Below are positions 2,839 to 27,001 of a stretch of DNA of 64,000 nucleotides, in pieces. The translations under genes were made by a program, and so were the position numbers. The number at the start of each line of letters is the position of its first letter. Positions within the stretch are counted from its first letter, which is position 1. Below the pieces are notes generated by a model. That model saw only the letters and a program-made list of their open reading frames with translations, did not search any database and was not told the DNA's origin. Origin of the DNA: an uncultured archaeon (GTDB lineage Archaea; Iainarchaeota; Iainarchaeia; Iainarchaeales; VGJJ01); assembly GCA_964427715.1 (NCBI GenBank), contig CAYRUV010000002.1, positions 85,663 through 149,662 of the forward strand. The letters are read 5' to 3'.

Positions 2839-2951
2839 AAAAAGGGTATACTCGCTATACCAAGGAAATGCCCGAGAAAGCATTAAAAAAGACCTTCCTG
2901 AAGACCCACCGAACACGGCATCCGGAGCCATTAAACCCCCTAAAACAACCC

Positions 2952-3752: not shown

Positions 3753-3756
3753 AACG

Positions 3757-6700: not shown

Positions 6701-9700
6701 CAATTGGCATCAAAACCCGTATTCAAGAGAAGAACAGGAACCTCTTCCTCACTCTGAGACTCACTCACAATGTAGAGCGGCGAAGAAGTGTCTGTGTTTG
6801 CATCCACAAAGTTCGTACACCCCACCCCAATACAATATTGGAAGTTGACATCCACCCCTCCGCAGGAAGCAATCCTACACGTCACGCGCGTGGAAACATT
6901 GATGTTCATGGAAACTTGGTATGAATTCCCATCATACGCGGGATTGTCAATACGATACGTCAAAATCCCATTCGGCGTGGGATTCGAATTGATATCCTTG
7001 ATGAGGAACAACGCCCCATTATTCACGAACTTATTCATGTCCTTCTGAGACGAAAGAATCAGCAAATCGTTGGCCAACGCGTTCCCGTCCGTGTTGTACA
7101 CTCCGACTGTGAACCCGGAGCGATTGTTATCCCCCAGTGTGTCATTGTTATTATCGCCCTGCCACAAGTGAGTGTAGTTGGTATTCAAATCCAAATTACG
7201 ATTCCCATCCGTATTCACACCAACATTCCGAATGTAGTACACTCCACCCTGATTCGTCTTATTATTATCCAACCGAGGAACCACGATGAAGAAATCATCC
7301 ACATTGATATCCCCATCCATATTCGCCAAATAAACTCCCGGATCGGACCCATTTGCGTCCCCAATCATATCCCACGCATTCGCCCCGGACCAGCGAATAT
7401 TGTATGGACGATAAGCCGCCGCCGTCGAATTCAAATCAATCGCACCAGAAGTGGAATACCCCGCATCCCGAATTAAGTAAATCGCCCCATTATCCAGCTT
7501 CCCATTCACATCCGCATAGGGTGAAATGAAGAGCAAATCGTCACCCGCCGCATTACCGTCCACGTTCAACTGATAGAATGGAGGACCGGAAAAATTATTA
7601 TCCGACAAACGATCCCCCGCACCACCATTCAAACGGAAAGAAAAATTAGGGATTTGACCAAGATAGCGGCGAGCCGCCGACTGCCGGATGGTGGAAACGT
7701 CACGAATCACATACCAGACCCCAGGATCCGTCTTCCCATTCACATCCGCCACGCCCGAACCAATAATCACATCGTTCGGACCCGCGTTCCCATCCAGATT
7801 CAACACATCAAAACCCCACCCCTCACTTTGGGAACGAGTAATCTCCTCATTCGATGCAGAACCATACCACGAGACGTTAAATGAAGGAAATCCCTGATAC
7901 GGCGTCGTATTCAAATCGAAACGACCACTGCGAGTGTTTAGGTCAGTAATAAAGTACAACATTCCATTGTTCGAGAACAAATTAAAATCCGCTAAACTCG
8001 CCGCCACAAACAAATCATTAGCCGTCTTGTTCCCATCAGTATTGTACATACGAGCATAGGGCCGAACGAACTCATTTGAAAGAATGTACGGAGACGCGGT
8101 CCCGAGATTGTCGTTCGAACGACCCCCACTCCACATCGCCGTGAAATTATTAACCGTGGAATTCAAATCAATGGTCCCAGAACGCGTGTTGATATCCCCA
8201 ATGTAAAACACGGCCCCATTGTCCGTGAGATTATTGACATCAAACAGCGGAGCCGTGAGAATCAAATCATTCGTGAATCCATCCCCATTCAAATCGAACA
8301 ATTGAGTCCCCGAACCATACCCGCGCGTATTCCCCAATCCCGCTAAAGTAGCCCCACCCACCCACTGCACCGAATACAACGCCACATCCGACAACCCGCG
8401 AATCCCATTCGGAATGTTCACGACGTCCTTAATCACTGTCACCGCCCCACAATCCACACGCAGAGTGTTACAATCATACCCGGTGCTAGTAATCAACAAA
8501 TCATTCGCCTGCGCATTATTATCCAAATTCACTACCTGCGTACAATTCCCACTCCCCCCACACCCGCCCAACAAATTTGACGTGGCCAACCCATTCCCAT
8601 CAAAGCGAATATTGTATGACGTGGTGAGATTCAAATCCTTATATCCAACCATGGTATTGATGTCGCGAATGATGTAAATACTCCCCGAATCCGTACGATT
8701 GAAATCCGCCAACGTATTTGTGATAATCAAATCGTTCGCCGTGAGATTTCCATCCAAATTAACCACTTGAACACCCTGGCCCCCGAAGTTGGTATCCCCA
8801 ATAAACAAGGACGCCATTGAACCCCCCCACGCGACCGAATACCCTAACGGACTATTGAAATCATACAAACCCGACTTGGTATCAATATCCTTGATGAGAT
8901 AAACACCACCCGAATCCGTCTTGTTGTTCACATCCGCGTTCACGGCCGTCAAGAGCAAATCGTTCGTGTAGCCATTCCCATCCACATCCAGCAGCTGCAC
9001 CCCAATACCCGAACCCACCGCCAAACGACCCGTACGACCCAAAAAATCATTCGGACGACCCCCATTCCAACGCACCGAAAAATTGGCCGGATTTATCAGA
9101 CTGTACGCCCCACTATACGTGTTGATGTCCCGAACCAGATACACGGCCCCGGCATTCTGCTTCGCATTTGCATCCACTAATGGGGCCGTGAACAGCAAAT
9201 CATTCGCAAACGCCCCATCATCCACATTCACGACTTGAACACCCGTATTCGAATCGAAAGTACCCCCAACCGCCCCAAACATGTTCCCATCCCACACCGC
9301 CGAAAAATTAGGCGGAGAATTCAACTCGTACGTGGGATCAATAACCACCGAATCGCGCGCCGGAACATCCACCGAGATAATCGTGTCAATAATAGGAGCG
9401 TCCCCCCGCGAATGAACCAAACCTATTGGAGAAACCCCGCTCCGCCAATAATCCGACCAATCATACCGACCCACCGGAACATTCTCACGCGAACGAAATT
9501 CAACATACTCATTAATGAGCAATGGAACCGGCAACACCGGAGAATTTTCCACCGACAACGAAAAGGGATCCTCCCGCGTGTGAACCACCTGATACCGAGA
9601 AGACTCGGGAAGAAGACGCTCCTCCGTCAACACCGTAAACGGACGCGCCCACAAACGAATATTCACCAACCGACGCACCGGAACATCCGAGGAATTAGAG

Positions 9701-11604
9701 AGAACCAACGACTGCTTGACCTGCGGAAGGGAATCCCCCAAAATCGTCGTCTTAGGATCCGGAGAACGAGGATCAAACTCATTGAAGACATTCTGCAACG
9801 ACACCGAATCACACGAAAGGAAACCATCCCGCGACTCCCCTAATCCACGATTATCCAAAACAGACTCATCCAAGTCAACGATCCTCTCATCCGACGAAAC
9901 AACCCCAGCTTGAACGAGCGAAGGCGATTCATCCGAAAGAACGGAAACCACACCAGAAACGGCAGCAGTATTCGCCCCCGCGGGAAGTTGACCCCGATCA
10001 TCCACCCGACGCTGAGGACCACACTCCAATGAGATCTCCATCCGAGTGAACAACGAAGACAAAATCAACGAATCGCTCTCTGAAAAACGAGTCGTGGAAA
10101 ATGCGCGATTCTCAAACAATGACTTCAAATCCTTCAGCGCTTTAGCCAACGCCTCCGCATCCGAAAGGGGAAGATCATCCAACACCGACTCGGGAGAGGG
10201 AAGCAAATAGAAACGATACGCGGACGAAGAAGAAACGAGCCGAGTATCAGAACGAGGAGACCATTCCCCCAAACACGAGGACGAAGAAGCATCCCAGCGC
10301 GCACACACTTCCCCCTTCGACCCATCCACGGAGGGAGAAAGCGAATACGACCCACTCTCAAAAGGAACATTCGTCCGGATGAAAATGATCTGAGAACCAT
10401 CCTCCGAAGGAGGATAATTCGTGATCTCCGTCAGAATACCCTCTTTGGAAACCGAAACCCCACTCCAAATAACCCCCGCGAGAGGAGACGTCAACAAGGA
10501 AGAGACCAACGAATACGACCCTGGAAGAACCGGAACCGGATGCTCACCCCCCTCAATCCGAGAACCATCCGCCGAAATCAAAACGTGAGAACCAGGATGA
10601 TTCGAAAAAGTCACCGAAACAGGAACCCCCTCAAACGGACGATTGCGACCCAGGGGAACCACGCGAAACAAAGACCCCTCCGAATCCCGACCGATGAAAA
10701 AAGAATCATCCGACGAAAGAGAGATGCGAAGAGGAGACGGACACGACCCGGAAGTCGACGTGGAACCAGGACACCAGACCAACCCCTCCTTCTCCCCGAG
10801 AGGATACGACAACACCAATTTTTTACGCGGAGAATCCACCCCAAAAAACAAATGAACACCCACCGAAGGAGAAAACAACTCATCCCCGACACGAACAACA
10901 TCCGGAAGAACCGCTGAATCCAACAACACCCCCGTAGAATCCGACCGCAAATCAAACGAATCTAAGTCCACACGTGAAAAAGGCTGATCCCAAAACGTGA
11001 AACGAGCCGAGTACGAACCCGCAGGAACCCGCATGACCCCGCCGGATGAAACGGACATGACGTCGCCCGAACCATCCACTAATTCGAAAGCCCCCGAATG
11101 ATTCGAAGGAGTGAAAAGAACCGGCAGTGAAACAGAAGAACCACCAGAAGAATCAACCCCACCCGAAGACGAAGACGAATCATCCCCTCGATCCCCCCGA
11201 GAACCGGAAGGAGAAACGACTCCATCATCGGAAGAATTACGAACCTCCACACTCACTGATTTTTCCGAACACGCGAAACCCGAACACACCTCAATCACAA
11301 ACGAATGAGACCCATTCTCCACCGACGAAGAATCCCACTCCACCAACCACCCCTCACGAGCCGAAAAAGAAGACTCAAACGAAAACGAATCATCCGCGGA
11401 ACGAATCACCGCACGATCCACACGCGAAGGATCTGAAATGGAAAGCAAAAAACCCACCGGACCCGACACGACCTCACGATCCAGCGGAGAAACCACCCCA
11501 AAATCCGGAGCCCCCTCCCGCAACAACTCCTGCGCCGCGGTGAAGAATGGAAAAAGTACCAGCACAAGGACAAGGAGACACGACCCTACGAACATTGTAC
11601 GCAT
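3757..11604 (-). CDS. giant secreted surface protein (2,615 aa) with 20 FG-GAP/VCBS-like repeats
   Basis: Single open frame. I place the start at ATG 11604 (MRTMFVGSCLLVLVLVLFPFFTAAQ, a signal peptide), because the ORF-track extension to 11907 overlaps the divergent gene and promoter. It has a Ser/Gly-rich linker, 20 tandem 75-85-aa units (G.GVQVVNLDGN...NDLLITA..AD.NGK.D.GAVYLIKDI....G..DLN) and a C-terminal Cys-containing domain of about 160 aa. Confidence 0.9.
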   Translation of the reverse strand: MRTMFVGSCLLVLVLVLFPFFTAAQELLREGAPDFGVVSPLDREVVSGPVGFLLSISDPSRVDRAVIRSADDSFSFESSFSAREGWLVEWDSSSVENGSHSFVIEVCSGFACSEKSVSVEVRNSSDDGVVSPSGSRGDRGDDSSSSSGGVDSSGGSSVSLPVLFTPSNHSGAFELVDGSGDVMSVSSGGVMRVPAGSYSARFTFWDQPFSRVDLDSFDLRSDSTGVLLDSAVLPDVVRVGDELFSPSVGVHLFFGVDSPRKKLVLSYPLGEKEGLVWCPGSTSTSGSCPSPLRISLSSDDSFFIGRDSEGSLFRVVPLGRNRPFEGVPVSVTFSNHPGSHVLISADGSRIEGGEHPVPVLPGSYSLVSSLLTSPLAGVIWSGVSVSKEGILTEITNYPPSEDGSQIIFIRTNVPFESGSYSLSPSVDGSKGEVCARWDASSSSCLGEWSPRSDTRLVSSSSAYRFYLLPSPESVLDDLPLSDAEALAKALKDLKSLFENRAFSTTRFSESDSLILSSLFTRMEISLECGPQRRVDDRGQLPAGANTAAVSGVVSVLSDESPSLVQAGVVSSDERIVDLDESVLDNRGLGESRDGFLSCDSVSLQNVFNEFDPRSPDPKTTILGDSLPQVKQSLVLSNSSDVPVRRLVNIRLWARPFTVLTEERLLPESSRYQVVHTREDPFSLSVENSPVLPVPLLINEYVEFRSRENVPVGRYDWSDYWRSGVSPIGLVHSRGDAPIIDTIISVDVPARDSVVIDPTYELNSPPNFSAVWDGNMFGAVGGTFDSNTGVQVVNVDDGAFANDLLFTAPLVDANAKQNAGAVYLVRDINTYSGAYSLINPANFSVRWNGGRPNDFLGRTGRLAVGSGIGVQLLDVDGNGYTNDLLLTAVNADVNNKTDSGGVYLIKDIDTKSGLYDFNSPLGYSVAWGGSMASLFIGDTNFGGQGVQVVNLDGNLTANDLIITNTLADFNRTDSGSIYIIRDINTMVGYKDLNLTTSYNIRFDGNGLATSNLLGGCGGSGNCTQVVNLDNNAQANDLLITSTGYDCNTLRVDCGAVTVIKDVVNIPNGIRGLSDVALYSVQWVGGATLAGLGNTRGYGSGTQLFDLNGDGFTNDLILTAPLFDVNNLTDNGAVFYIGDINTRSGTIDLNSTVNNFTAMWSGGRSNDNLGTASPYILSNEFVRPYARMYNTDGNKTANDLFVAASLADFNLFSNNGMLYFITDLNTRSGRFDLNTTPYQGFPSFNVSWYGSASNEEITRSQSEGWGFDVLNLDGNAGPNDVIIGSGVADVNGKTDPGVWYVIRDVSTIRQSAARRYLGQIPNFSFRLNGGAGDRLSDNNFSGPPFYQLNVDGNAAGDDLLFISPYADVNGKLDNGAIYLIRDAGYSTSGAIDLNSTAAAYRPYNIRWSGANAWDMIGDANGSDPGVYLANMDGDINVDDFFIVVPRLDNNKTNQGGVYYIRNVGVNTDGNRNLDLNTNYTHLWQGDNNNDTLGDNNRSGFTVGVYNTDGNALANDLLILSSQKDMNKFVNNGALFLIKDINSNPTPNGILTYRIDNPAYDGNSYQVSMNINVSTRVTCRIASCGGVDVNFQYCIGVGCTNFVDANTDTSSPLYIVSESQSEEEVPVLLLNTGFDANWTLKSNDANRAYTFRFYGVGTSAGPSIPPEPQWYFHVDPDNSYDLLQGYNYQIRFEGASSNDFLGMTASNDSGVYFVNIDNGSYNNDLILSAPRADVNGKADAGAVYLFKNFDMNSGNIDLNKHINSYSARWWGGVAGDIIGDTNFNGRGFQIVNVDGNSYSNDMIIVAPMADANAKVNNGAVYLIKDIDRWDGNFDLNFVASSSVRFTGGAAGEMLANANRTDNPLKLVDMDGNGYTNDLLISAAYADANSKRDGGRVYMILDIDKLSGIKDMNLPTGYNAAWNGTTNDDQLSSSNTTTSSHQEDGLYVIDVDGNGYSNDLLIMAPMADVNSKLNVGLVTLIKDAHRKTGSIDLNQVFNAPGMVQWNGGRTSDTMGFNNGSGPGLQIVNLDGNGTSNDLFITGSAADGNKADTGIIYLIKDINTIAPGRYDLNIAAPASFTAYWEGGATTDSLGDTSQSGRALQVVNLDGNTNANDIILNVPLADTNGKTNIGSVYMILDVQSKIGRFDLNVAANANAQWRGQTANDQLGDFEMTGTAGLVLDTGRGVQVVNMDGNSVTNDLLITASGFDYNGKVDVGAVFGIKDANTYSGIYNIAVPYTVSFTVNGGATTDNLGDTNRSGIGVQLVNIDNNAWSNDLLLSTVRADVNGRTDAGAVYLIKDISSDANGGRYDLNAPARFDVRWVGDTPSGFLGASGASGSGVQVENLDNESYANDLLITSTTANTAYLVQNGSIYLDKNIDFDSGFKDLLNASNYDKRWRGSRSGNQLGASFYSGEGVQVINADNDSYANDLLITASAADVNFFFRTNNGAVYYVPDVVTSGSLDYSFVLFLPSSGCTSNKGNLTGGTSCQRAYFEATDTTGVADSNQIAPEGQSASQPFFVYDNQSSSATDFNIILDLNESLPSSLVLKASNIVGGYEAGCGGNPASGCVAIPAAPSTQSVGRASYTAGTFDLNIFFWADFIAAAVGNEDRNVDSNTVA
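4240..9312 (-). repeat. array of 20 protein-level FG-GAP-like repeat units, interrupted by a roughly 140-aa insert at about 6553-6975
   Basis: I counted the units by eye in the translation (ORF-track aa 866-2556). The nucleotide copies are diverged and no long identical DNA repeats were seen. Confidence 0.8.
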
Positions 11605-11665
11605 GCCGGGAAGAACTTGATTAGGATTATTAACCCTTATATTGGAAGCCACACTACCTCGCCCC
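11605..11665. promoter_or_regulatory. 61-bp divergent promoter region
   Basis: TTATATT at 11637-11643 is centred about 26 nt upstream of ATG 11666. TTAATAAT (minus-strand reading of 11623-11630) lies about 20-26 nt upstream of ATG 11604. Both genes would be leaderless or have very short leaders. Confidence 0.5.
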
Positions 11666-12886
11666 ATGACACACTCATGGGCGGGAATCGCCTTCCTGGC
11701 ACTCCTCCTCCTTGCACCGATTGCCCATGCCGCCAGCACGGCCACCACCCTCTTCACCTTCCGAGTACCCGCCACGAGAAGCCTATCCGTCGCGTATGGA
11801 GGATCCTGCTCAGCCAGCGCCTTCTTCTTCAATGAAATCGACGCCAACTTTGACCCCGACGTGGACGGAAACGCGGCCAAAGTCAAACCCTCTGCCGTGC
11901 GAAACACCGCCGCCTACACCACCACCGACTACAACTTTGTGGGAGTCATCGGCCCCAGCGATCGAAACCGAGCATACTTCGGCAACTTATTGGAAGAACC
12001 ATCCACATCTATCTCACAACCAGCAGGAGAAATTGATGACGTGAACTACCACCGCCTAACCGTCGAAGATTTTAATTATTACTTTGCAGGAAACACCACC
12101 ACCCGCTGGCCCAGCCTGAGACTCGCATTCAAAGCCAACCCCCATGAACTGACCATTCGCGACCTCAACCTCACCTATGTGGGAGCAGCCACGAGAGGAA
12201 CCGATTGCGCATTCGAAGGAGGATTCGTAAATGACTCGGACCTCAACGGATGGATATGGAACTTCCGAACGGGAGCATACGAACGGGTATTCACCCATGA
12301 CGGAGACAATGGATTGACCTCAGACAGCGTCCTAGCGCTCCGATACGACGCCTACATTGACTATAACATCACCGACTACGTCGACCACGACCAAAACATC
12401 GTATTCCTCATCCAAGGACAACGAAAAGCAGGAGGCGCCACGGAATGCCTCGTCACCGACTTCGCGGAACTCAAAATCACCCACTACCCCCTCCAAACCC
12501 AATACTGCCAGAGTGAGACGGTTGCCCCGTTTACAATAACCAACAATGGAAACGTCGACGTGAACGTGGACGGAAACTTCGCCAGCGCATTCGCCGGAAG
12601 CGACGTGAATGTGGTGTTGAAAGTCTGGATGGGCACTGGAACCGGATGCGGAAACACCGGATATGGAGGATGGGAGGACACGTGCAGCGTGACATCCACC
12701 ACCAGCCCCGTCACCCCGACGCAGTGCAAGAACTACAACGAACACAACGAGACTACTGCCTCCCGACTCGTCACCAAACTTCTCGTTGGAGACACCAACC
12801 AACTATGCTTCTCCGGAGACTTCAACGTATTCGTATCGGGCGGAGACCACAACCAAAACTTCCAAGCCGGAGCCCTGTACTCATGA
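11666..12886 (+). CDS. A-family secreted six-Cys protein, copy A2 (406 aa, with a roughly 200-aa insertion)
   Basis: Signal peptide MTHSWAGIAFLALLLLAPIAHA. It shares ordered motifs with 43919-44578 (SLSVAYGGSCSASAFFFNE; ITNNGNVDVNVDGNF; LKVWMGTGTGCG; DTNQLCFSGDFN; GDHNQNFQAGALYS). ORF-track start 11642 is a TTG inside the TATA box. Confidence 0.75.
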   Translation: MTHSWAGIAFLALLLLAPIAHAASTATTLFTFRVPATRSLSVAYGGSCSASAFFFNEIDANFDPDVDGNAAKVKPSAVRNTAAYTTTDYNFVGVIGPSDRNRAYFGNLLEEPSTSISQPAGEIDDVNYHRLTVEDFNYYFAGNTTTRWPSLRLAFKANPHELTIRDLNLTYVGAATRGTDCAFEGGFVNDSDLNGWIWNFRTGAYERVFTHDGDNGLTSDSVLALRYDAYIDYNITDYVDHDQNIVFLIQGQRKAGGATECLVTDFAELKITHYPLQTQYCQSETVAPFTITNNGNVDVNVDGNFASAFAGSDVNVVLKVWMGTGTGCGNTGYGGWEDTCSVTSTTSPVTPTQCKNYNEHNETTASRLVTKLLVGDTNQLCFSGDFNVFVSGGDHNQNFQAGALYS

Positions 12887-13704
12887 ATCGAATCACGTAT
12901 AGCCTCATCCTACTTCCCATCCTCCTACTCGCAGGATGCACCACCCCCCAAACCAACGAACCAACACCATTCACCCAGACCGCAGAAGATATCCACCACC
13001 ACGACCTATTTCTCCTCCACGCCCAAAAAAATAACCAGACCCTGGAAGAAACCCGTGCGTTCTTTCAACAAACGTATGAAATCCAAAACGAAAACACCAT
13101 TTTCCAAAACCTCCCCACCCCCCCAACCACATTCAATGAACACCTCCAAGTCTGGAAGGGAGGAGACACCAACGCCCTCCTTCAAGTACCCCCCGAAACC
13201 TACCTCCAACCTGAATTCTACCCCACATTCCAAGAAACGGGACTAAATGCATGGATAAACGCCCCCAACCCCCCGGCCGCCGCCATGGGAATCATGAGCA
13301 TCCCCGCGGAACAAGAAACAACGATCCCCCCTGAAGAGACCACCATCGAAGCCGCCCTATACATCGGAAGCGCGTGGGGAACTACCTACTACCAGGGAAT
13401 GGGACTCCGATACACCCTCGAACCCAAAACCCCCCACACCCTCACCATCACCCCCGCAAACATTCTCGTCGGACCCACATTCCCACTCTTTTCCAAAAAT
13501 TGGATGAAACGCATCCAAATCCAAGGAACCATCACCCCCACCCCCGGAGTAAAAACATACACCCTCCGCCTATTTCCCGCAACACCCACGGTTGACCTGG
13601 AAAACCAATGGGCCTACACGCAAACACCCTACGTGAGAGCCGACACCACCCTCATCAACCCGGAAGGATTGGCCACCCTCACGATCCACGTCCAAGAGGA
13701 ATAG
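12883..13704 (+). CDS. B-family protein, copy B2 (lipoprotein-like)
   Basis: ATG 12883 overlaps the A2 stop (ATGA). The N-terminus MNRITYSLILLPILLLAGC is lipobox-like. Motifs ETYLQPEFYPTF and LVGPTFPLFSKNW are present. The ORF-track extension to 12646 lies inside A2. Confidence 0.75.
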   Translation: MNRITYSLILLPILLLAGCTTPQTNEPTPFTQTAEDIHHHDLFLLHAQKNNQTLEETRAFFQQTYEIQNENTIFQNLPTPPTTFNEHLQVWKGGDTNALLQVPPETYLQPEFYPTFQETGLNAWINAPNPPAAAMGIMSIPAEQETTIPPEETTIEAALYIGSAWGTTYYQGMGLRYTLEPKTPHTLTITPANILVGPTFPLFSKNWMKRIQIQGTITPTPGVKTYTLRLFPATPTVDLENQWAYTQTPYVRADTTLINPEGLATLTIHVQEE

Positions 13705-13735
13705 CGATAAAAGGGAACCCAACCCCAAGTAGACC

Positions 13736-14269
13736 ATGAAAATAGACATCATCCGACTATCCGAACGAGGATACCGCGACCTGAGAATCACCACCCACTG
13801 CGCCCTGGTGGCACGCGCGTGGGGCGCTGAACGCATCATCCTCTCGGATGACACCGACCCCCAAATAGGAAAGAGCGTGGACGCGATATCCACCCAGTTT
13901 GGAGGAACATTCAAGGTCGAATATGAGAAAAAACTCCTCCACCGAATCAAAACCATGAAGAAAGAAGGGTATACGATTGTCCACCTCACCATGTACGGAG
14001 AAAAACCCGGAAAACAAATTCCCCTCATCCGAAAAAACAAGAAAATTGCCGTGGTCATTGGATCCGAAAAAGTGGAAGGAGACGTGTATCGACTCGCCGA
14101 CTATAACATCGGAATTACCCGACAACCCCACAGCGAAGTCGCCGCCCTAGCCGTGTTTCTACATTACTTGCAGGAAGGAAAAGAAGAAGAATTGATTTTC
14201 AAAAACGCCAAAAAAATTGTCGAACCCAACCCCCGAGGAAAAACCATCCGATCCACGCGCGACATTTAA
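13736..14269 (+). CDS. trm56: tRNA (cytidine56-2'-O)-methyltransferase aTrm56 (SPOUT)
   Basis: 177 aa. The N-terminus IIRLSERGYRDLRITTHCALVARAWGA matches my recollection of the aTrm56 RLGHR..RD.R.TTHV.L.ARA.GA pattern. Size and the C-terminal knot region (IGITRQPHSEVAALAVFL) fit. Confidence 0.75.
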   Translation: MKIDIIRLSERGYRDLRITTHCALVARAWGAERIILSDDTDPQIGKSVDAISTQFGGTFKVEYEKKLLHRIKTMKKEGYTIVHLTMYGEKPGKQIPLIRKNKKIAVVIGSEKVEGDVYRLADYNIGITRQPHSEVAALAVFLHYLQEGKEEELIFKNAKKIVEPNPRGKTIRSTRDI

Positions 14270-14278
14270 ACAGAATGG

Positions 14279-14833
14279 ATGAAGAAAGAATGTATGGCCA
14301 AAGAACCCGACATCCTCGCTTTCAAACTCACCCAAGAATTCCTCAAAAATGTTGGAGGAGACGAAGCCCCCCAAGTGGTTCGGATCTGCCTCGACAAAAA
14401 TGGAAAATGCCTAGACGAAGACATCGAAGTCAAGATGAAACACTTGAAAATTACTGAAATTCGCAGCATACTGAACCGCCTACACTATCGCGGAATTGCC
14501 TGCTATAACAAAACCAAAAATAAGAATTCGGGATGGTACACCTACACGTGGGAAATCAAACAACGACGCATCGTCGAATTGATTCTGGAACAACAATCTG
14601 AAATGCTCCAAAAACTGGAAACAAAAGCGCAGTTTGAAAGCAACCACGAACTATTTGTTTGCAAGAAAAACTGCGAAGAAACACCCTTTGAAATTGCCGC
14701 CCAATACGAATTCCGATGCCCGGAATGTGGCGACATGATGAATCCAGTGGATGGAAAAAAGAAACAAAAAGAAGTCAACCAGCAGATCGGATTGTTGAAA
14801 ACCGAACTGACGGAACTCCAAAAAATCATCTAA
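14279..14833 (+). CDS. tfe: transcription factor E (TFE-alpha, TFIIE-alpha homologue)
   Basis: N-terminal winged helix (ITEIRSILNRLHYRGIACYNKTKNKNSGWYTYTWEI) followed by a Cys4 ribbon (VCKKNC...FRCPECG). Confidence 0.8.
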   Translation: MKKECMAKEPDILAFKLTQEFLKNVGGDEAPQVVRICLDKNGKCLDEDIEVKMKHLKITEIRSILNRLHYRGIACYNKTKNKNSGWYTYTWEIKQRRIVELILEQQSEMLQKLETKAQFESNHELFVCKKNCEETPFEIAAQYEFRCPECGDMMNPVDGKKKQKEVNQQIGLLKTELTELQKII

Positions 14834-14948
14834 AAAACGCACAATCTTGGACAAGTGAGTATAATAAAAGGAGATGCCAATTAAAAGTCAAATAGCCTAG
14901 AAATAGTAAATACTACCCAAATAGACAGTCATTAATTAACGTGAAACT

Positions 14949-15023
14949 AGCGGGGCGGGGCAGTCTGGAGTGCCCGTCGGGCTCATAACCCGAAGATCGA
15001 AGGTTCAAATCCTTCCCCCGCTA
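14949..15023 (+). tRNA. initiator tRNA-Met (CAU)
   Basis: 75-nt cloverleaf: acceptor AGCGGGG/CCCCGCT (A1:U72), anticodon arm TCGGG-CTCATAA-CCCGA with three G:C pairs (an archaeal initiator hallmark), T arm GAAGG-TTCAAAT-CCTTC. Confidence 0.9.
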
Positions 15024-15303
15024 CTATTACTCTTTTTTTAGCGGAATTGGATACTTCTTCTAATTCCCTGTTTTTTGAACCCTCAAATCGTCCGAATTAT
15101 TGCTTTTTGTACTCAGGAACTGAAAAACAGTGTCTCAGTTCGTGATTTTTGACCCGAAAATCGTGAAAAATTAACAATTTCTAGTTTTCTTTGTCTTAGT
15201 TGCATTTTGTCTTTCAAACCAACCACCCTCATTTGTGTTTTTTCATCAATTTTGTTAACATTCTTCGTATTTACCAGATTTGTTTCGATTCTGAATTGAC
15301 TTT

Positions 15304-15367
15304 TGGTAATTACTAGTAATTACCATACAGTTTTTAAGTAATTACTATCATTACTATCATTACTATG
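15304..15367. promoter_or_regulatory. operator-like array: 22-bp perfect palindrome plus three tandem 9-mers overlapping a start codon
   Basis: TGGTAATTACTAGTAATTACCA (15304-15325) is a perfect palindrome. GTAATTAC occurs at 15306, 15316 and 15338. ATTACTATC, ATTACTATC and ATTACTATG run from 15341 to 15367, and the last contains ATG 15365. Confidence 0.6.
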
Positions 15368-15841
15368 ATCAAGATGATCCTTCGCCGAGTGTTTAGGGCC
15401 ATGAATAGCCTCCAGAAGTGGGTAGATGATGACCCTAGAAATGAGACAGTATTACAGAACATGCGAAATGGAACAGTATTAACGAGTGAGCACGTTAACA
15501 AAATCCCTTCCCAGAAGAGATACCAAATAGTGAATATGTGGGACCACCTATCCTTCAAGGAAGGAACCCAGGCCCACCACATCACCAAGGTGCTTGATTA
15601 TGAAGAGTGGATTAGCATGGAAGAGATATTACGTCGCGTGAATGAGTTATTTGGAATACTCTATCAGAATGAACGATCCCTTTACCCCTACCTCAAGACC
15701 CTGGTTGATTCAGGGCTGTTGGAAGCCAATATGGTGGGCGGCAAAATGAAGTGGAGAAAAAAGAACTTGATTATTACGGTCGGAGAGGAAGTAGAAAATG
15801 AAGAGGTTGTGAATAGACCGGTTTCACAACCCTTTAATTGA
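15365..15841 (+). CDS. hypothetical protein with C-terminal winged-helix-like region
   Basis: 158-aa ORF. A wHTH-like stretch (ISMEEILRRVNELFGILYQNERSLYPYLKTLVDSGLLEANMVGGKMKWRKK) is present. No family recognised. Confidence 0.5.
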   Translation: MIKMILRRVFRAMNSLQKWVDDDPRNETVLQNMRNGTVLTSEHVNKIPSQKRYQIVNMWDHLSFKEGTQAHHITKVLDYEEWISMEEILRRVNELFGILYQNERSLYPYLKTLVDSGLLEANMVGGKMKWRKKNLIITVGEEVENEEVVNRPVSQPFN

Positions 15842-16432
15842 TTTTATTCGTTCATTAAATTCAGTTAATTTGGGAGAATTGGAGTAGTGGGTGCGAAACC
15901 ATTCGTGAGAAAGGACGGATTGAGCCTCATTCAAAACGGCTTGCTTGTGGCTTTCCTCGACCTTTTCGGATAGTTTATGCTTGTCCAAGATTGTGCCCAA
16001 TTCGTCGTGGAGTTTCTGGGGAACCTTCTCATTGTGGGTGATATATGTTCGATCCAGAAGCTCTTCCAGGGCATTTACGACCTTTGAATCCTCGATTTCC
16101 TTCTCATCCATGTAATAGACGGCTTTCCAATCTCCTTTGGATCGCCAATTATGGGATGGGTTCTGGCCCGTGGCACAAAACTGTTTGAATTTGGCAAATG
16201 CCGCAGGGTGGATAATCACTGAATTCTTACCCGGGCGAATGTAAGGGGTATCGGAAAGGACTCCCTTTCGATGATAATGGTAGACTTTCCCGTTCGACTT
16301 GGTGACATTTTGCGTGTATCCGTAGATCGCTCGGAAGAGCTTCTGATACGTATACGTCGAATGTTTGATCGATTCAGGTAGAATGAATTTGTATTGGATG
16401 AAATAAGCTTTAACCATGACGACACCCCCCAT
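15824..16432 (-). CDS. hypothetical protein
   Basis: 202-aa ORF with coding-like composition. Its 3' end overlaps the previous gene convergently by 18 nt. No family recognised. Confidence 0.5.
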   Translation of the reverse strand: MGGVVMVKAYFIQYKFILPESIKHSTYTYQKLFRAIYGYTQNVTKSNGKVYHYHRKGVLSDTPYIRPGKNSVIIHPAAFAKFKQFCATGQNPSHNWRSKGDWKAVYYMDEKEIEDSKVVNALEELLDRTYITHNEKVPQKLHDELGTILDKHKLSEKVEESHKQAVLNEAQSVLSHEWFRTHYSNSPKLTEFNERIKSIKGL

Positions 16433-16543
16433 ACTTCCGGTAATATAGTATATATGAAAACTAAAATCGAGTTTATGTTGTCTTATGAAACATAAGAACT
16501 ATTTAAAGTTAGAGCTTGTCTGAAAAAAAATAATCAGACAAGT

Positions 16544-16864
16544 CTATCGGCGTCGAACGTACGGCGTGTAAGAAGGGCGTCGTGCAGCGGGTGCAGGGGC
16601 TTCTTCTTCCTCAACAGGTTGAGGTCGTGATCGCGTTCCAACCAACAAAATATCCTTGGCGGACAAAATGTTTTGGTACGGAATGCTTTTCTCGGCAATA
16701 ATCTTTCGAGCTTCAACTTTCGTTCGAACCTTCAAAGGCTCTGTGGTCATCGTTTCAATCTTACCTTTCTCAAGGTTAATGACTAAATCGAAGACTTTCC
16801 CCTTGTACTCTGCGTTATCTGTATAGATGTCCATTCCAAATAGCTTGGAGATGCGTACTGTCAT
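16544..16864 (-). CDS. PRC-barrel domain protein
   Basis: 106 aa with a PRC-barrel-like N-terminus (ISKLFGMDIYTDNAEYKGKVFDLVINLEKGKI) and a basic tail. Confidence 0.6.
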   Translation of the reverse strand: MTVRISKLFGMDIYTDNAEYKGKVFDLVINLEKGKIETMTTEPLKVRTKVEARKIIAEKSIPYQNILSAKDILLVGTRSRPQPVEEEEAPAPAARRPSYTPYVRRR

Positions 16865-17074
16865 AGATTTTTCCCCCTGATTTCATCCAAAATCAAGTAA
16901 GCAGTAGAACCCGAACATTGTATTTAAACTTTTGGACCAATTTCGCCGTAATTCCTTTTCACGCTTTGATTTCACAAAACTCCGTGAGTAGTGGAAGTGT
17001 GGGGGGTCGGCTTTCGTTCACATAACCCAAAAAGGAATTGATTGTTATGTATTTTTCTTATAGATAACTTTCAA

Positions 17075-18010
17075 TCATAATTTGTCCAACGGACTTTGAA
17101 CTTTCTTGATCTCTTCCTTGGAAACATGGGTGTAGATGGATGTAGTGGAGAGGTTGGCATGTCCTAGGAGGAGTTGGATCTTCCGAATGTTTTCCCCGCT
17201 ATCTAGCAGGTGAGTGGCGAATGAGTGTCTGAGCACGTGGGGGGTGACTCTCTTCATAATTTGTCCTTCTTTGGCTGCGTGACGGATGATTCGTTCCACG
17301 GTGTCGGTGGAAATAGGTTTTCCATTTTTTTTGGAAAACAAGTATTCGGATTTCACTTTTTTTCTATTCAAATATTTTTTGATTTCGCCCGACCATTTTT
17401 GTGAGAGCACTACCATACGATCTTTGTTTCCTTTTCCCCCTCTCACTTGGGCGGTGCCATTATCCCAATCAATGTCGACTAGTTTCATTTTCACGGCTTC
17501 ACTCACGCGTACGCCTGTGGAGTAGATGAATTGCAAGAGCAATCGATTTCTTCCATGTTTTGTATTCGTAAAAATGGTCTTGAGTTCGTTGAGTGTGAGT
17601 ACGCTAGGGAGTTTTTTCGCTTTCTTTGGAATTTTCACGTCTTCCACCACTCCTAATTTCAGGTGCTGCTCGAGGAAGAAGCGCAATGCTGAATGCATGA
17701 GTGAAAGGGTGGCATTGGACACATTTTGTTCGCGCGCCTGGGCGAGAAAAGAGATGACGTCTTGTTTGGTCATTGTTTCAGGTGTCTTGCGTGTGTGTTC
17801 CAAGAATTTTTGGGCGTAGATCAAATACATTTTGATTGTTTTGGGAGAGTATCCCGTGACTAACAATTCTTGTCGGAATGCGGTGAGTGTTTGTTGGGCC
17901 GCAGGGGAAAGGGGTTCCTTTCCATCGGTTTTTAGTTCGACCACCGAAAGAGTGGGGGTGATTTGGGTGTTGTCGTTTCCAGGTGAGAGGGGTTCCATTA
18001 CCCAGTACAC
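17075..18010 (-). CDS. tyrosine recombinase (XerA/XerC/D-like integrase)
   Basis: N-terminal SAM-like core-binding domain (GYSPKTIKMYLIYAQKFLEH). The catalytic region has R (STGVRVSE), HVLRHSFATHLL and LLGHANLSTTSIYTHV (catalytic Tyr). Confidence 0.9.
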   Translation of the reverse strand: MYWVMEPLSPGNDNTQITPTLSVVELKTDGKEPLSPAAQQTLTAFRQELLVTGYSPKTIKMYLIYAQKFLEHTRKTPETMTKQDVISFLAQAREQNVSNATLSLMHSALRFFLEQHLKLGVVEDVKIPKKAKKLPSVLTLNELKTIFTNTKHGRNRLLLQFIYSTGVRVSEAVKMKLVDIDWDNGTAQVRGGKGNKDRMVVLSQKWSGEIKKYLNRKKVKSEYLFSKKNGKPISTDTVERIIRHAAKEGQIMKRVTPHVLRHSFATHLLDSGENIRKIQLLLGHANLSTTSIYTHVSKEEIKKVQSPLDKL

Positions 18011-18034
18011 TGCTTTGCAGGATAAAATGCTGCC

Positions 18035-18304
18035 CTATTCTTCGTCGGAGTTGGTCTTTTTCTCGTCTTTGGGGGCGTCGGCGACTTCTTCTTCCCATTC
18101 TTGGAGGACTTTGCCCTTTTTGCCTTTCTTGACTTCTTCAAAGTCTTCAACGAGTTCTTCGGTTTCCTCATCGTCTAAGCCGAGCATATGGAGCTTTTCC
18201 TTATGATCATCCTTCGTGAGCTTGTCAAACTGCTCTTTCCAGATGCGGTCTTCCGGCTTGACGATTTTCCCTTCCGGGTGCTTTCGGTTCTTCAATGAAG
18301 GCAT
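18035..18304 (-). CDS. small acidic Lys/Glu-rich hypothetical protein
   Basis: 89-aa ORF located 24 nt upstream of the recombinase on the same strand. Confidence 0.45.
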   Translation of the reverse strand: MPSLKNRKHPEGKIVKPEDRIWKEQFDKLTKDDHKEKLHMLGLDDEETEELVEDFEEVKKGKKGKVLQEWEEEVADAPKDEKKTNSDEE

Positions 18305-18725
18305 ACTATTTTCTTCTTTCCACGGTCTTTATAAGCGCGCCATTCTTCTTTATGTGGAACGCTAACCCGTAATGTTTATATACAACGTAAGACCCATTCT
18401 CTATTCCCTAGCATTTTTCCAGCACCATCATTGAGCCGGTGGGGTTGGTTCAGTCATTAACACACCAAAGGAAGGGGTCCCAGATGAAAGTTGAAGTATC
18501 CGAGGAACTGCGCCTGAAACTGTTGGAAGAGGAGTTCAAACTCCGCTCTAAGCAGCCGACTGCGTGGACGAAGACGAAATTTCGCCCCTACGCGAATTTT
18601 CGCCGACCGAAGACTGAACAAGTGATGCAGTAAGCACACTGTTCTTTCTCATCTTTTTTTCTCTTTGTTTTTTCAGTTTCACTTCTTTCATCACCCTTAA
18701 ATAGCGGGTTTCCGTTTCCATTTGC

Positions 18726-19178
18726 ATGGACTTCAACACGCCCACTATTCTCATTGGAATTCTTCTCGTTGCAGGAATCGCAGCATTGTATCTTTTCGCG
18801 CCCGATTTTTCTCCTACTGCACTTGTAACCACGGCTATTCCTCCTTCCAACCCTTTTGTGGGTAAGGTCACGCACAATATTGATCAAATATTTCGCGACA
18901 GTCCGCAAGCGGTAATTGAGCAGGATGGTCGCACCGGATTATTGTTGCCGGGCGGGAATTCCGTTCAGTTTGCGAATGATCCATCCACGACTGACAAAGA
19001 TGTAGTATTCATTCTCAACGCGACGCATCATTCGATTGCACAGTTTCATTCGTATCCTGAATTTGTTTCGAATGAGTTTACCTATATTTCTCCCGAACAG
19101 CTCGCAGGGGAAAACCCCTACGTTCGAGCGCAATATCCGGACGGATTATATTTGATGCCTGTGGATATCGAAGGATAA
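18726..19178 (+). CDS. membrane-anchored hypothetical protein
   Basis: 150 aa with an N-terminal TM helix (ILIGILLVAGIAALYLF) and an extracytoplasmic remainder. Confidence 0.55.
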   Translation: MDFNTPTILIGILLVAGIAALYLFAPDFSPTALVTTAIPPSNPFVGKVTHNIDQIFRDSPQAVIEQDGRTGLLLPGGNSVQFANDPSTTDKDVVFILNATHHSIAQFHSYPEFVSNEFTYISPEQLAGENPYVRAQYPDGLYLMPVDIEG

Positions 19179-19181
19179 CGT

Positions 19182-19559
19182 ATGCGTTCAACGGACTGGC
19201 TCATCTCAGTCGGCTTCACCATTTTTGCTTATCTCTTCTTTGTCAATTTTGAATCGCTTCGTTTAGGTGGGTTGGTTGTATTTTCATTTTTGTTCGCATA
19301 CTACATTTCCACGGATGAATGGCGTTTAGGTCGGGCCGTGTTGCTTTCTATCCTTCCCATCTTGTTGTCGGTGGCATTGTTGTTCATCGCGCCCCTATTT
19401 TGGACAACGGTCATTGAACAATCCGCGCGCGGTCCGGCATTGACGGCGGCGGCGTATGGTTTTTTGGTGATGCTCGTCCTTTCCATTCTCATTGGAATTC
19501 CCCTCGCGTGCGCGGGAGCGATGATTCGTCATTATCGCGTGGTGCGCGTGGCGGATTAG
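19182..19559 (+). CDS. polytopic membrane protein (about 4 TM)
   Basis: 125 aa, starting 3 nt after the previous gene, with four hydrophobic segments. Confidence 0.55.
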   Translation: MRSTDWLISVGFTIFAYLFFVNFESLRLGGLVVFSFLFAYYISTDEWRLGRAVLLSILPILLSVALLFIAPLFWTTVIEQSARGPALTAAAYGFLVMLVLSILIGIPLACAGAMIRHYRVVRVAD

Positions 19560-22500
19560 TTTTTCTTTCGACTTCCGGTAATGGTTTCAGTTCAATTGGT
19601 TCGATTTTTTTCTTCTTCCATTCTTTCCGAATGAAGAATCCTCCCACAATCACAATTATTCCAATCAGCGGCCATCCAATGGGTGGAACAGATACGAGTC
19701 CGCTTAGTCGGTTTTCAGATGAATAATAATGATGGAGATTTTTTCCGACGAAAATAGCCTTTCCAAATTCCTCCTTTTGAATGGCTTGTTCTAATTTCTC
19801 CCACGCCTCTTTGACGTCCTCTCGACTGTCGTGTTGTGCACGGTCTCTCAGGCTCGTTTCAAGTCCGCGGGCGGTTTTTTCTACTTCCTCAATGGCATCA
19901 TTGGTGTTTTGGGCGCGCTGTTTCCACTTGTCTATGTTTTTTTCAGCCTCCTCCTCATCGAGAATTTTTTGTTCATTGGTGGTTTTTTCTGATCCATTTC
20001 TTTTTCTCATTTGTTCTTCTTTCTTGGTGTCGGCATCCCATTCTTTGTTCCACTCTTTCAGTGTTTTTTCATCAATGGGGCAATAGTATCCAACTTCGGA
20101 GAGTTTGGCACAGGTAATTCCCAGACTCTTCTGGTATTTTTCCATTTTTTCTTTGGCATTGGACATGCTTTCGTGCATTTCCTCTAGGTGTTTGCTGAAA
20201 CGTTCTTCCTGAATCGGTTTTTGTATACCTGTTTGAGTTGGTTGAGGAATTTCCTCTCCTTTCTCTCCTTTTTCCTTGAGTTGCATTACCTCCTGGGCTA
20301 GTGCCGGCCATTTTTCAGGATTGGTGTTTGAATGAATTTTGTTCCAAAGCTTCTGGGCCTCGGCGGAAATCAATGCGTTTTCGTTTTCCAACCATTGGTA
20401 AATTTCGTCTTCCAGTACTTCTTGAATGAATGGGGTTTCTTCGTTTTCTTTGGAAAGTAGAATTGATACTGTTCGATGGCCGCTTTGGGGGATGGCTACG
20501 TCTTGAAGGATGATGTCGCCGAGCACGCCGATGGAGTAGGGGATCGTGTGTCCGCTCTCATCTAGTGCCAGAATAGTAATCGTTCCCGAGAAAGGTGAGA
20601 TGATTCCCGTCTTGATGGATGTCGAGTAGGGGTGTTCGGTGGTGTTGGTAATAGTAACGTCATACCATTCATTCACACTCTCTTCATCTTTTTCCTGTTT
20701 TAGAAGGGTTGTTTTCACGGTCATGATTCCTTTCTGGACGAATTGGAGTGTAATTTCCTCGTCTGATTCATCGATTGAAATAATCCCTCCCAATTCGTTG
20801 CTGGACGGATCTACTTGAATTATTTTTCCATCCATTTTGCCTTGAATAGGGGGGATAATGTTTCCTCCTATAACTTTCCAATTCCACTGTGCGGAATCAC
20901 TGTTGGCCTTTGCGTGAATCGAGAGGGTGGTTTCTATTGTCGCTTCGTCTCCAATGATTTGTTTAACGTTTGTTAGTACTGTGAGGGCGTTCCATTCTCC
21001 TTTTCCTTTTCCGCTAATGGTTAGCCCTGTTTTTGGGAGGGAAATATTTTCGATTTCTATTTTTTTGTTCACACTGTTTGTCCATTCATCGTCGGGGAGG
21101 AAGTTTGATATTGGTTCCTGGATGTAAAGGGTTCCGTTTAACGTGATGCTCTGGCCAAACGGGTTGGGGATGTGTATTTCTGCTTCGGCTTCTACTTCTC
21201 CCAGTCCTATCGGCTGAGGTTTCATTACTTTCCACTTGCTTTCATTCACTTGAATTTGCAGTCCAGTCATCAATGTGTTTTCGACGGCGCTTACTATTTC
21301 CTCAAGTATTTCGGCATACTCTTCGGCTTCTTCGGGGAGTAAAATGGGTGGATCCTTTCCTATTTTTTCCAGTTCAATTTTCCATTTTTCTTCAAGTGTA
21401 TAGTATTTTGGGGCTGAATGGGTGGCGTGGTAAATCGTCTCTTTTAATATTTTGAGTTTTTCCCAATTTTCCATCCATGTTTGTGTGAGTGAGTCCTTCG
21501 CGTACTGGTTTTCAAGTGCCATTTTCATACTTTCACATCCCGGTAGTGCGGCTTCCACTCCGTATTCAGCGATAAACGGTTCCAATTCAATCGGGTTTCC
21601 TCCCAGCGCGGATTGGAGAAGATTCACTTTTTCCAAACATGCGGTCATTTGGATGGTCCAGTTTGGTTTTTCCCATTCAAACGTGCTTGTTTCGACTGTC
21701 CATTGAATGGTGTCGCAAGGGTCTTCGTTTTTGACCTTTCCCACTTCCATTTTTTCTTGAAGGGTCATGCACGCATTCTCGAGCGAGTTGTTAGTTTCTG
21801 TTTGTAGGGCAATGCGATTTTCCCAATCGTTCATCAATTTTTCTACTTTTCGTATTCGCTCTATGCGTTGGCCGAGGGGTTGATTTTTTTCAATGGCACT
21901 GTCTTTGGCTTTTTTCATTTCGGTGTCAATTATTTGATTGCTCATTCCCGTTTCTTCTTTCCATGTGGCTTGAACATGGTGGGCGTGGAAGAATGGTTGC
22001 AGTTCATTCCACTGGTTTTGTTTTTTCTCCGTTTCAATCTCCAATTGATTTTGTTTTTCTACTAATTCGTGGGCGCGCATTTCCAATTCGGCCACTTTCT
22101 CGCTTTCCATTTTTTCAAGAGTCTGCCATTCCTTTTCCATTCCTATGACGAGTGAAATCGCTTGAATGGCCAATCCATTGGTGGGGGCGGTGGTAATTTC
22201 GACGCTCTGGATCATCTCTTCGGCTTGGATGGATTGCATGAGCGTGATGGCGCTGTTTTTGGTTTTTCCTTTCGTTAAGGAGGATATTGCACTTTTCCAT
22301 ATCGTGGAGAACCAGATGATGGTCTTTTTCTTTTCCGGGTACGCAATTCCAACTCCTGTATCATACCATGAAAATGCGTCTTTCCAGTCGAATGAAGCAG
22401 ATGGTAAGGGTTGGTTGGAGAGCTTTTGGCCTATTTCCGAATAGTATTCTTGATTTTTTCCCCACTCTTTTCCCCATTCGTTGGTTTCATTTCCAGTGGC

Positions 22501-23010: not shown

Positions 23011-23058
23011 GCGCTTTTTCTCGCCGCGTGCGAGTTAAAAGCCTAGGGGAAATTTTTC

Positions 23059-23316
23059 TCACGCGCACTCAGTAATAGTTGCCTTGCCGTGGTTGAGTTG
23101 GATTCCATTCACAAGGCAGTCGACTTGTTCTTTGAGGAGTGTATTTTGGGTGGTGAGGGCTTCTTGTTGATCAATCGAGGCAGCTCGGGCAGGGTTGGTG
23201 AAGGGTTCCACATACGTGGCGAGTGATACGCCGATTATGACTCCCACCAGTAGCAAAATAATTCCCATCCACGCAGTGGGGGATAATCCTTTGGGGTGAT
23301 GTCCTTTGTCGTCCAT
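23059..23316 (-). CDS. small single-TM protein
   Basis: 85 aa with TM helix WMGIILLLVGVIIGVSLATYV followed by a short coiled-coil-like tail. It lies directly upstream of the 1,173-aa gene on the same strand. Confidence 0.5.
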   Translation of the reverse strand: MDDKGHHPKGLSPTAWMGIILLLVGVIIGVSLATYVEPFTNPARAASIDQQEALTTQNTLLKEQVDCLVNGIQLNHGKATITECA

Positions 23317-23350
23317 GCATGCTATGCAGCCCGGTTTCGTTTTTTAACGT

Positions 23351-23761: not shown

Positions 23762-23798
23762 GCGGGCTCGTTTATTAAGTCCCCCGTCCGCATTTCGT

Positions 23799-25388: not shown

Positions 25389-25602
25389 TCCACGAAAAAA
25401 GAAGCATCAGTCTCCTTCTGCGCTCCGTTCGCGTATTGAAAAGGATGCGCTGCGGGATATGTACCCTCCGCGCAAGAAAAAGTTCATTCGAGAGGGGTAA
25501 AGGGAAGGGTTCCCTCCCTCCTTGAGTCCTTTTGGCTGCCCTTTCGGAAAACGTTTTTATATCCCCTAATCGTTCATGCACCATTGAGGGGGAATGTAAA
25601 CC

Positions 25603-25872: not shown

Positions 25873-25920
25873 GGGGAAATAATCCATTTCCCCCCTCATT
25901 TTCCATTTTCTTTGTTGATA

Positions 25921-26985: not shown

Positions 26986-27001
26986 ACGTGTTCTTTCCTA
27001 C

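Follow-up and report, generated by a model that had tools for sequence, protein, structure and literature searches.

In Pyrococcus abyssi, the replication origin oriC has been mapped by experiment and coincides with the peak of the amino-minus-keto disparity curve (PMC4164010). It abuts orc1/cdc6 and carries several canonical origin recognition box (ORB) or mini-ORB repeats. Here, we analysed a 64,000-nucleotide stretch of DNA from an uncultured archaeon (assembly GCA_964427715.1, contig CAYRUV010000002.1, positions 85,663 to 149,662 of the forward strand; hereafter the window), in which the base composition of the + strand reverses its polarity near 15 kb. As the orthologues of its XerA are annotated 'Candidatus Diapherotrites/Iainarchaeum' and the protein itself is an XerA equivalog, the window is chromosomal DNA of an Iainarchaeota (DPANN) archaeon. 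Like P. abyssi oriC, the switch combines a sharp extremum of amino/keto and GC disparity with AT-rich intergenic DNA and with inverted boxes that contain a GGAA core and a G-string, and its sign (amino-rich then keto-rich; C-rich then G-rich) is that of P. abyssi oriC. Unlike the latter, it offers only two boxes that are 60-65% like the consensus and have a gene between them. With moderate confidence, we read the switch as a non-canonical chromosomal replication origin zone at ~14.9-17.1 kb.

Among Diapherotrites, a bacterial-type skew and an origin predicted from skew have been described before (PMC5905446). The organism in question, Candidatus Forterrea, belongs to the same phylum-level group as ours and likewise has very large surface-protein genes, and its origin was placed by bacterial-type cumulative skew, as is done here; however, that origin lies next to cdc6 and the skew is genome-wide and two-armed, whereas the window has no cdc6 and one arm of its skew fades (PMC5905446). 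Sulfolobus oriC3 with WhiP provides a precedent for origins that are unlinked to orc1 and lie beside a small winged-helix gene, although WhiP is a Cdt1-like initiator and the winged-helix gene at our locus is PadR/RosR-like with operator-like boxes (PMC4164010, PMC12141716). A skew-predicted archaeal origin is a known class, and what is unusual here is the strength of the skew, the lack of a linked initiator gene and the decay of the skew on one side. In small genomes of the Borrelia burgdorferi type, the third positions of codons are set by the strand of the gene, with a skew of ~0.3-0.6 over whole replichores; the magnitude in the window is similar to that of this bacterium. To our knowledge, no DPANN origin has been mapped by experiment; the usual assumption is that these origins coincide with orc1/cdc6, and one recent study rotated 208 complete genomes to this gene.

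A strand-specific switch in base composition near 15 kb

To separate the effects of the DNA strand from those of the gene strand, we employed four-fold degenerate codon third positions and calculated keto4 = (G+T-A-C)/n, oriented to the + strand. In the left compositional domain (1-14833), the + strand is A/C-rich at synonymous sites regardless of gene strand, with a keto4 at 1-14.9 kb of -0.54 in + genes and -0.51 in - genes. The right proximal domain (17075-36600) shows the opposite, the + strand being G/T-rich at synonymous sites of genes on both strands (keto4 at 17-36.6 kb of +0.33 in + genes and +0.40 in - genes). Pooled, keto4 changes from -0.53 on the left (n=2367) to a plateau of +0.36 at 17-36.6 kb (n=2795; z=35.7), and its GC and AT components each reverse their sign across the switch. 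Within each side the skew is alike in + and - genes, so that neither the orientation of genes nor their codon usage accounts for the flip. The tendency of the four-fold sites is also seen in intergenic DNA. These data confirm that the polarity switch is real, sharp and specific to the DNA strand, as a preliminary description of the window had claimed from the letters alone, including its statement that the left side is C/A-rich whichever way the genes point.

The same picture emerged from all sites. In 2-kb windows, the left side has a GC skew of -0.1 to -0.28 (~-0.2) and an AT skew of +0.1 to +0.44 (~+0.3), while from ~16 kb rightwards the GC skew is +0.03 to +0.17 and the AT skew -0.07 to -0.38. 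The cumulative keto (G+T-A-C) skew reaches its minimum for the whole window at position 15,024, which is the 3' end of the initiator tRNA gene (tRNA-Met(CAT), 14949-15024, + strand), and the cumulative GC skew is lowest at 15,386; the extremum expected of an origin is thus present over the window. The best single change point in the all-site keto skew is 14,947, with support for 14,919-15,034. Four-fold sites place the best break at 15,703, and the genes at 15.3-16.9 kb are neutral (keto4 +0.07 +/- 0.07), so that the flip is spread over ~2 kb. The preliminary description had put it inside a 530-bp interval, which does hold the all-site skew minimum, yet the neutral genes to its right speak against a point switch. 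It had also called the gene starting at 15365 on the + strand G/T-rich; with a keto4 of -0.23, this gene is in fact slightly C/A-rich.

Further to the right, the G/T-richness described earlier holds only in part: it applies to both gene strands at 17-36.6 kb and is lost beyond ~43.77 kb. A domain of weaker skew extends over 36601-43766 (keto4 at 36.6-45.7 kb of +0.15 in + genes and +0.32 in - genes), and after a break at 43,766 it gives way to a neutral zone (43767-60762; keto4 -0.01) in which gene order is kept in relatives. This zone of 17 kb begins exactly at the A3/B3 paralogue pair (43898-45705), and skew is back (+0.25) at 60.8-64 kb. One of these paralogues, A3 (43898-44578), had earlier been set against A2 (11642-12886) from the left domain as an internal control for opposite codon preferences. 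The two are genuine paralogues (54% identical), but A3, lying inside the neutral zone, is less skewed (keto4 -0.14) and not opposite.

Conservation of the switch among relatives

We recovered the homologous locus from six other assemblies. They comprise a 93.6-kb contig from the Joint Genome Institute (L082; XerA 93% identical to that of the window), L083 and L084 (80%), a 212-kb contig (L085; 74%), the NCBI contig JAZDJQ010000001.1 (L086, L088 and L090; 78%), one Logan sample, SRR15669521 (L081, L087 and L089; 95-96%), and the closed genome CP064981.1 of 1,048,949 bp (L093), where the switch lies at ~165 kb and xerA on its side of higher coordinates. A literature search for CP064981 found no publication, and an exact look-up of the TFE protein of the window gave no entry. 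A scan of genome contigs by XerA alignment was swamped by bacterial Xer and yielded a single useful locus, L001 from an Iainarchaeum with an XerA of 50% identity.

The genes run in the order Trm56-TFE-tRNA-regulator-202aa-PRC-XerA-...-Taw1-NFACT in all seven assemblies, and still do so at 50% XerA identity. Both this order and the position of the flip are common to L082, L083, L085, L086 and L093, and the flanks in L089 and L090 agree. In L082, L083, L085 and L086, the minimum of the cumulative keto skew falls at the tRNA-Met gene or within ~45 nt of it, and in the closed genome the flip is visible gene by gene across the same spacer. The AT component at four-fold sites flips in each of these loci on either gene strand. 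Judging from the identity of only 50-80% between the proteins of the relatives and those of the window, synonymous sites should be saturated among them, in which case the asymmetry must be maintained at the same place in each lineage. The switch thus reflects a long-standing local mutational asymmetry, and neither history nor misassembly. A relic of an inversion was considered and rejected, as the same values are found in lineages whose synonymous sites are presumably saturated and as the DNA to the right of the putative inverted block is neutral and not left-like.

Conservation also bears on the suspicion that the switch is an artefact, be it of a chimeric join in the assembly or of the way in which genes are oriented and use codons. 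One Logan assembly does break close to it, as contigs of SRR15669521 end inside the PadR-like gene (at ~15.46 kb of the window) and inside the giant gene (end of L081, start of L089). Six other assemblies from different samples, among them the closed 1.05-Mb genome, nonetheless span the junction in the same order, and together with the agreement between + and - genes this makes an artefact exceedingly improbable; the chimeric joint that the preliminary description had allowed for was not found. In the Logan sample, the piece that holds the switch sits on a separate contig, which may be due to strain variation or a change in coverage near the switch.

The locus as a candidate replication origin

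In the standard model, the lagging-strand template stays single-stranded for longer and loses C to T. With a keto-rich + strand on the right and a keto-rich - strand on the left, this model has the forks diverge from the switch. Forks would leave the origin zone in both directions, and the lagging-strand template would remain single-stranded for longer on each side, gather C->T (and A->G) changes and become G/T-rich. To the left this template would be the - strand, and to the right the + strand. The zone would then comprise the initiator tRNA gene, easily melted AT-rich spacers, a PadR-type regulator with its operator array, a conserved 202-aa gene, a PRC-barrel gene with an inverted pair of ORB-like boxes on its two sides, and xerA.

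The 340-bp AT-rich spacer described before, between the tRNA and the regulator gene (15025-15364), has 30.6% GC and is the only intergenic region of the window with more than 300 bp and low GC. In an alignment of five genomes it has diverged except for an invariant block at its 3' end. This block (15266-15364) is an array of the palindrome GTAATTAC, with perfect copies at 15306-13, 15316-23 and 15338-45, one degenerate copy near 15268 and half-sites of the form CATTAC. The three perfect copies are the only ones in 64 kb (0.3 expected), and in CP064981.1 there are five. Around a TATA-like TTTTTAAG (15331-38), the boxes recur with a phase of ~11 and ~22 bp, and the array extends up to the ATG at 15365. 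Invariant in relatives and recognisable in its layout even in L001 (50% XerA identity), the array is the sole strongly conserved DNA of the 530-bp interval, and probably represents the promoter and autoregulatory operator of the PadR/RosR-type gene. The inverted repeat GAACTGA...TCAGTTC, which the preliminary description had singled out, is present at 15113-15145, but this palindrome is not kept in relatives.

Part of the array could also be taken for a site of XerA. The locus would then be a terminus with a site for chromosome-dimer resolution, at which forks converge, XerA acts on a dif-like palindrome and the leading strand is A/C-rich. The gene of a true XerA equivalog (259 bits versus 220) lies 2 kb away, no initiator gene is nearby, and the spacer contains an invariant palindrome, TTTTGGTAATT-ACTAGT-AATTACCATAC (candidate XerA site GGTAATTACTAGTAATTACC), which is unique and intergenic and has the geometry of dif, with a 6-bp spacer and 11-bp arms that are complementary at 9/11 positions. 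Known Xer/dif loci share with ours the adjacent XerA, the unique conserved 11-6-11 palindrome and the skew inversion; dif lies at the skew inversion in bacteria and Methanosphaera stadtmanae and close to xerA in Sulfolobales (PMC2958812). In contrast to these loci, the inversion here has the sign of an origin, a terminus being a maximum of the cumulative GC/keto skew where we find a minimum, and the palindrome is part of a multi-box promoter array. It is one unit of 4-6 phased boxes around a TATA box upstream of a PadR-type gene, which is the architecture of an operator, and it bears little likeness to P. abyssi dif (ATTGGATATAATCGGCCTTATATCTAAA). Moreover, a terminus of such sharpness would call for a fork trap, and we know of none in archaea. 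We therefore consider a terminus improbable.

For the origin reading, we searched for sites at which an initiator might bind, as the preliminary description had suggested. The pan-archaeal ORB consensus is TCCA[CG]T[TG]GAAA[TC][GA]AAGGGGT (PMC4164010). No site within 3 mismatches of the canonical 20-nt consensus exists in the 64-kb window, the spacer holds no ORB, and TCCANNNGAAA was not enriched and has no copy near the switch. Instead, we identified two ORB-like boxes 1.1-1.7 kb to the right of the spacer (16.4-17.0 kb). Box L, TTACCGGAAGTATGGGGGG (16425-16443, - strand), lies next to the start of the 202-aa gene, and box R, GTAGTGGAAGTGTGGGGGG (16988-17006, + strand), is non-coding and inverted relative to box L. 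They are the only two in 64 kb, bracket the PRC-barrel gene and lie outside the 530-bp interval. Like the pan-archaeal consensus, both have the GGAA-N5-GGGG spacing and a G-string; a pattern derived from the published consensus (ASTKGAA-N5-GGGG) matched box R only. The pair is found in L081-L086 and L093, and in close relatives both boxes are conserved while the surrounding spacer has diverged, box R being the most conserved block of the PRC-xerA spacer. A position weight matrix made from the relatives only scored box L at 34.4 bits and box R at 31.4 bits, with the next site at 12.7. These observations are evidence that the box pair is a real conserved element, which may serve as a pair of Orc1/Cdc6 binding sites. 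As an inverted pair beside a tyrosine recombinase, the boxes could also delimit an invertible segment, although the PRC-barrel segment has one and the same orientation in each assembly in which its gene was called (the window, L081, L082, L084, L085, L086 and L093). The 15-mer GGAAGTGTGGGGGGT, which is the core of the ORB-like box, has a third perfect copy at position 5290 of L086 (reverse-complement coordinates) inside a gene for a 717-aa DUF3604 protein that is specific to L086 and located between Trm56 and the B gene; we estimate the chance expectation at ~4e-5.

Duplex stability singles out the same region. The 100 bp with the lowest stability in the window (16441-16540) abut box L and form a candidate unwinding element (placed at 16444-16543, 26% GC), with a nearest-neighbour free energy calculated in silico of -110 kcal/mol against a window mean of -141.7 (standard deviation 6.8). 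The four least stable 100-bp windows start at 16441, 15268, 14850 and 17016, and all are within 14.85-17.1 kb.

A further conserved element flanks the tRNA gene. The non-coding motif GCACAATCTTGGACAAG (14839-14855, + strand), located just 3' of the TFE-alpha stop codon, forms a perfect 17-bp inverted repeat with a right arm at 15980-15996. The arms bracket tRNA-iMet, the spacer and the PadR-like gene, the right one being inside the coding sequence of the 202-aa gene (GTILDK motif). Their core, CACAWWYTWGGACA, occurs as an inverted pair in L082, L083, L085, L086 and L093 with 11-14/14 identity between the arms, and the left arm alone is conserved as far as L001.

The proposal of a candidate origin in the preliminary description thus gains from the sign of the switch, its conservation and the low duplex stability, yet several observations weigh against it. 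In line with the earlier remark on orc1/cdc6, Pfam and NCBIfam searches of the window found neither this gene nor whiP, primase or MCM. The precomputed Pfam annotation of the relatives' loci, covering ~-25 to +49 kb including the window, likewise contains none of them, and none of these replication genes occurs in the 10 kb beyond the left end of the window in three relatives. The ORB-like boxes match the consensus at only 12-13/20 positions and lack the TCCA half. They stand ~545 bp apart with a gene between them, compared with ~130 bp for the span of ORB3, the duplex unwinding element and ORB2 in Sulfolobus (PMC12141716). Neither the four-fold break (15,703) nor the all-site minimum (15,024) coincides with the boxes, both being 0.7-1.4 kb to their left, and box L, which precedes the 202-aa gene start by 6-25 nt, could be part of a 5' untranslated region or a ribosome-binding signal. 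Among the relatives, L001 keeps the gene order without a clear flip, and in L085 the GC skew at four-fold sites of the left side is positive (+0.18 to +0.36) where it is negative in all other genomes, while the sign of the AT component is unchanged. The former suggests that the gene cluster is older than the strong skew, and the latter that in this clade the two components are not tightly tied to each other. Finally, the skew on the right is lost after 20-30 kb, contrary to what a simple model with a single bidirectional origin predicts, and it is gone by ~37-44 kb in four genomes although gene order is kept. The locus of L001 has the order Trm56-TFE-tRNA-iMet-regulator-...-XerA, operator-like boxes and one ORB-like box.

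The two arms of the skew differ markedly. On the left, a skew of -0.2 to -0.6 holds over at least 25 kb, and the left domain of the relatives extends at least 10 kb past the start of the window. On the right, which the window and the relatives' loci cover to +49 kb, keto4 is +0.36 as far as 36.6 kb, ~+0.2 from there to 43.8 kb and -0.01 up to 60.8 kb, before rising to +0.25 over the final 3 kb. A scan of metagenome contigs with the right-most protein yielded two short contigs only. The syntenic equivalents of the neutral zone have values of ~+0.05 in L087, ~-0.13 in L088 and -0.08/+0.04 in L094, and contigs of relatives span the ~43.8-kb junction as well. Given the presumed saturation, a neutral value suggests that there is no net bias in fork direction, and the zone may point to a nearby fork-fusion zone, a second origin or strongly asymmetric replication.

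Such dynamics form a variant of the origin reading to which we give a tentative place, regarding it as unlikely. In this variant, a second origin or fork-fusion zone would lie at most a few tens of kb away on the right, or the leftward fork would copy most of the ~1-Mb circle, with only ~20-30 kb on the right being reliably copied rightwards. The left skew persists for at least 25 kb while the right one falls from +0.36 through ~+0.2 to ~0, and the values of ~0 or slightly below in the syntenic L087, L088 and L094 should, given the protein divergence, be at equilibrium and not relics. On the other hand, the return to +0.25 at the right end of the window (3 kb) is not what a simple sawtooth would give. 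The highly expressed genes of the neutral zone, S6e, S28e and L7Ae, are C/A-biased on the + strand, and selection for C-ending codons in them explains part of the neutrality; it does not explain that of ordinary genes such as the one for a 660-aa protein.

Genes around the switch and implications

On the left of the switch, a giant surface protein of 2716 aa (3757-11907, - strand) is followed by the A2/B2 pair, Trm56 and TFE-alpha (14279-14833), the stop codon of which immediately precedes the GCACAATCTTGGACAAG motif. The tRNA(CAT) gene, which the preliminary description had assigned to initiator tRNA-Met, shows an A1:U72 pair and three G:C pairs beside the anticodon loop when read from the sequence. 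We take these to be the marks of an archaeal initiator tRNA, and the assignment stands.

The gene downstream of the spacer (15365-15841, + strand) encodes a PadR/RosR-type winged-helix regulator of 158 aa. All orthologues (7/7) match Pfam PadR with a best E-value of 2e-4, and the protein has a weak profile match to the winged helix-turn-helix structures of haloarchaeal RosR. The idea that it is an initiator similar to WhiP/Cdt1 or Rep found no support, the similarity being of the PadR/RosR type only. It is followed by the gene of the highly conserved 202-aa protein (15824-16432, - strand; true start probably the ATG at 16417), which is 71-99% identical among close relatives. Profile searches of this protein against Pfam, NCBIfam and the PDB gave no match, and a single-sequence AlphaFold model was unusable (predicted local distance difference test score of 40).

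The PRC-barrel gene between the ORB-like boxes (16544-16864, - strand; Pfam PRC, E=2e-6) is succeeded by xerA (17075-18010, - strand), which encodes the archaeal chromosome-dimer resolvase. Its product scores 259 bits against the cut-off of 220 of the NCBIfam equivalog recomb_XerA_Arch and has thousands of DPANN orthologues, so that the 'integrase' of the preliminary description is the chromosomal XerA. A second small PRC-barrel gene (89 aa in relatives; 2124-2393 in L081) probably resides in an unannotated gap of 532 bp at 25389-25920, and two small PRC-barrel genes thus flank the XerA neighbourhood. PRC-barrel proteins have been linked to archaeal cell division, and the XerA neighbourhood may be a cluster of cell-cycle genes. 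To the right of xerA lie Taw1, NFACT and an operon resembling those of type IV pili.

A tyrosine recombinase next to a tRNA gene might also indicate a mobile element that integrated at the tRNA, leaving two sides of different origin. The tRNA indeed adjoins a region of lower GC (0.41-0.45 at 14-22 kb), with the recombinase 2 kb away. However, a search of the 64 kb with up to 3 mismatches allowed found no second copy of the tRNA 3' end (no att repeat), the recombinase is an XerA equivalog, the block is present in all seven assemblies with housekeeping genes inside, and the flanks are skewed in opposite directions instead of one side being merely different. A mobile element is therefore a very remote prospect.

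Three very large predicted surface proteins are encoded within 20 kb of the switch, namely at 3757-11907 (- strand, 2716 aa), 19489-23010 (- strand, 1173 aa) and 31306-34482 (+ strand, 1058 aa), with FG-GAP, LVIVD and VWA repeats. The giant one varies from 1525 to more than 2600 aa among relatives and is absent from CP064981.1. Further right, L087 (13065-14502) and L094 (13263-14670) carry L7Ae-S28e-L24e-NDK after the gene of a tRNA-editing domain. At that spot the window has three genes without an assigned function (48750-51127), the ribosomal cluster being absent from the 64 kb, and L088 has a transposase and a methylase; the site looks like a local hot spot of rearrangement. The pilus ATPase (T2SSE) of the JAZDJQ01 relative (1-2800 of L088) contains an intein with a LAGLIDADG endonuclease, which the copy in the window (37122-38624) lacks.

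One may tentatively envisage a DPANN origin that is unlinked to its initiator gene, lies in a conserved 'cell-cycle' cluster and replicates the chromosome with marked asymmetry, although we think this full scenario unlikely. The cluster may then comprise the initiator tRNA, TFE, the PadR-type regulator, the conserved 202-aa protein, the PRC-barrel protein and XerA. The asymmetry would arise in one of two ways: forks from a second origin nearby would meet the rightward fork within ~30-45 kb, or almost the whole 1-Mb circle would be copied by the leftward fork. If true, this would be a replication geometry that has not been described for archaea with such small genomes.

With a skew of ~|0.5| at four-fold sites, some archaea would have a replication-linked mutational asymmetry that matches that of the most skewed bacteria. 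Should the switch prove to be an origin, the start of replication can be misplaced in genomes of this lineage when they are rotated to orc1/cdc6, and estimates of growth rate from read depth should use the switch point instead. The box pair would then provide concrete candidates for initiator binding, and the one-sided decay of the skew gives a testable hint of unusual fork dynamics.

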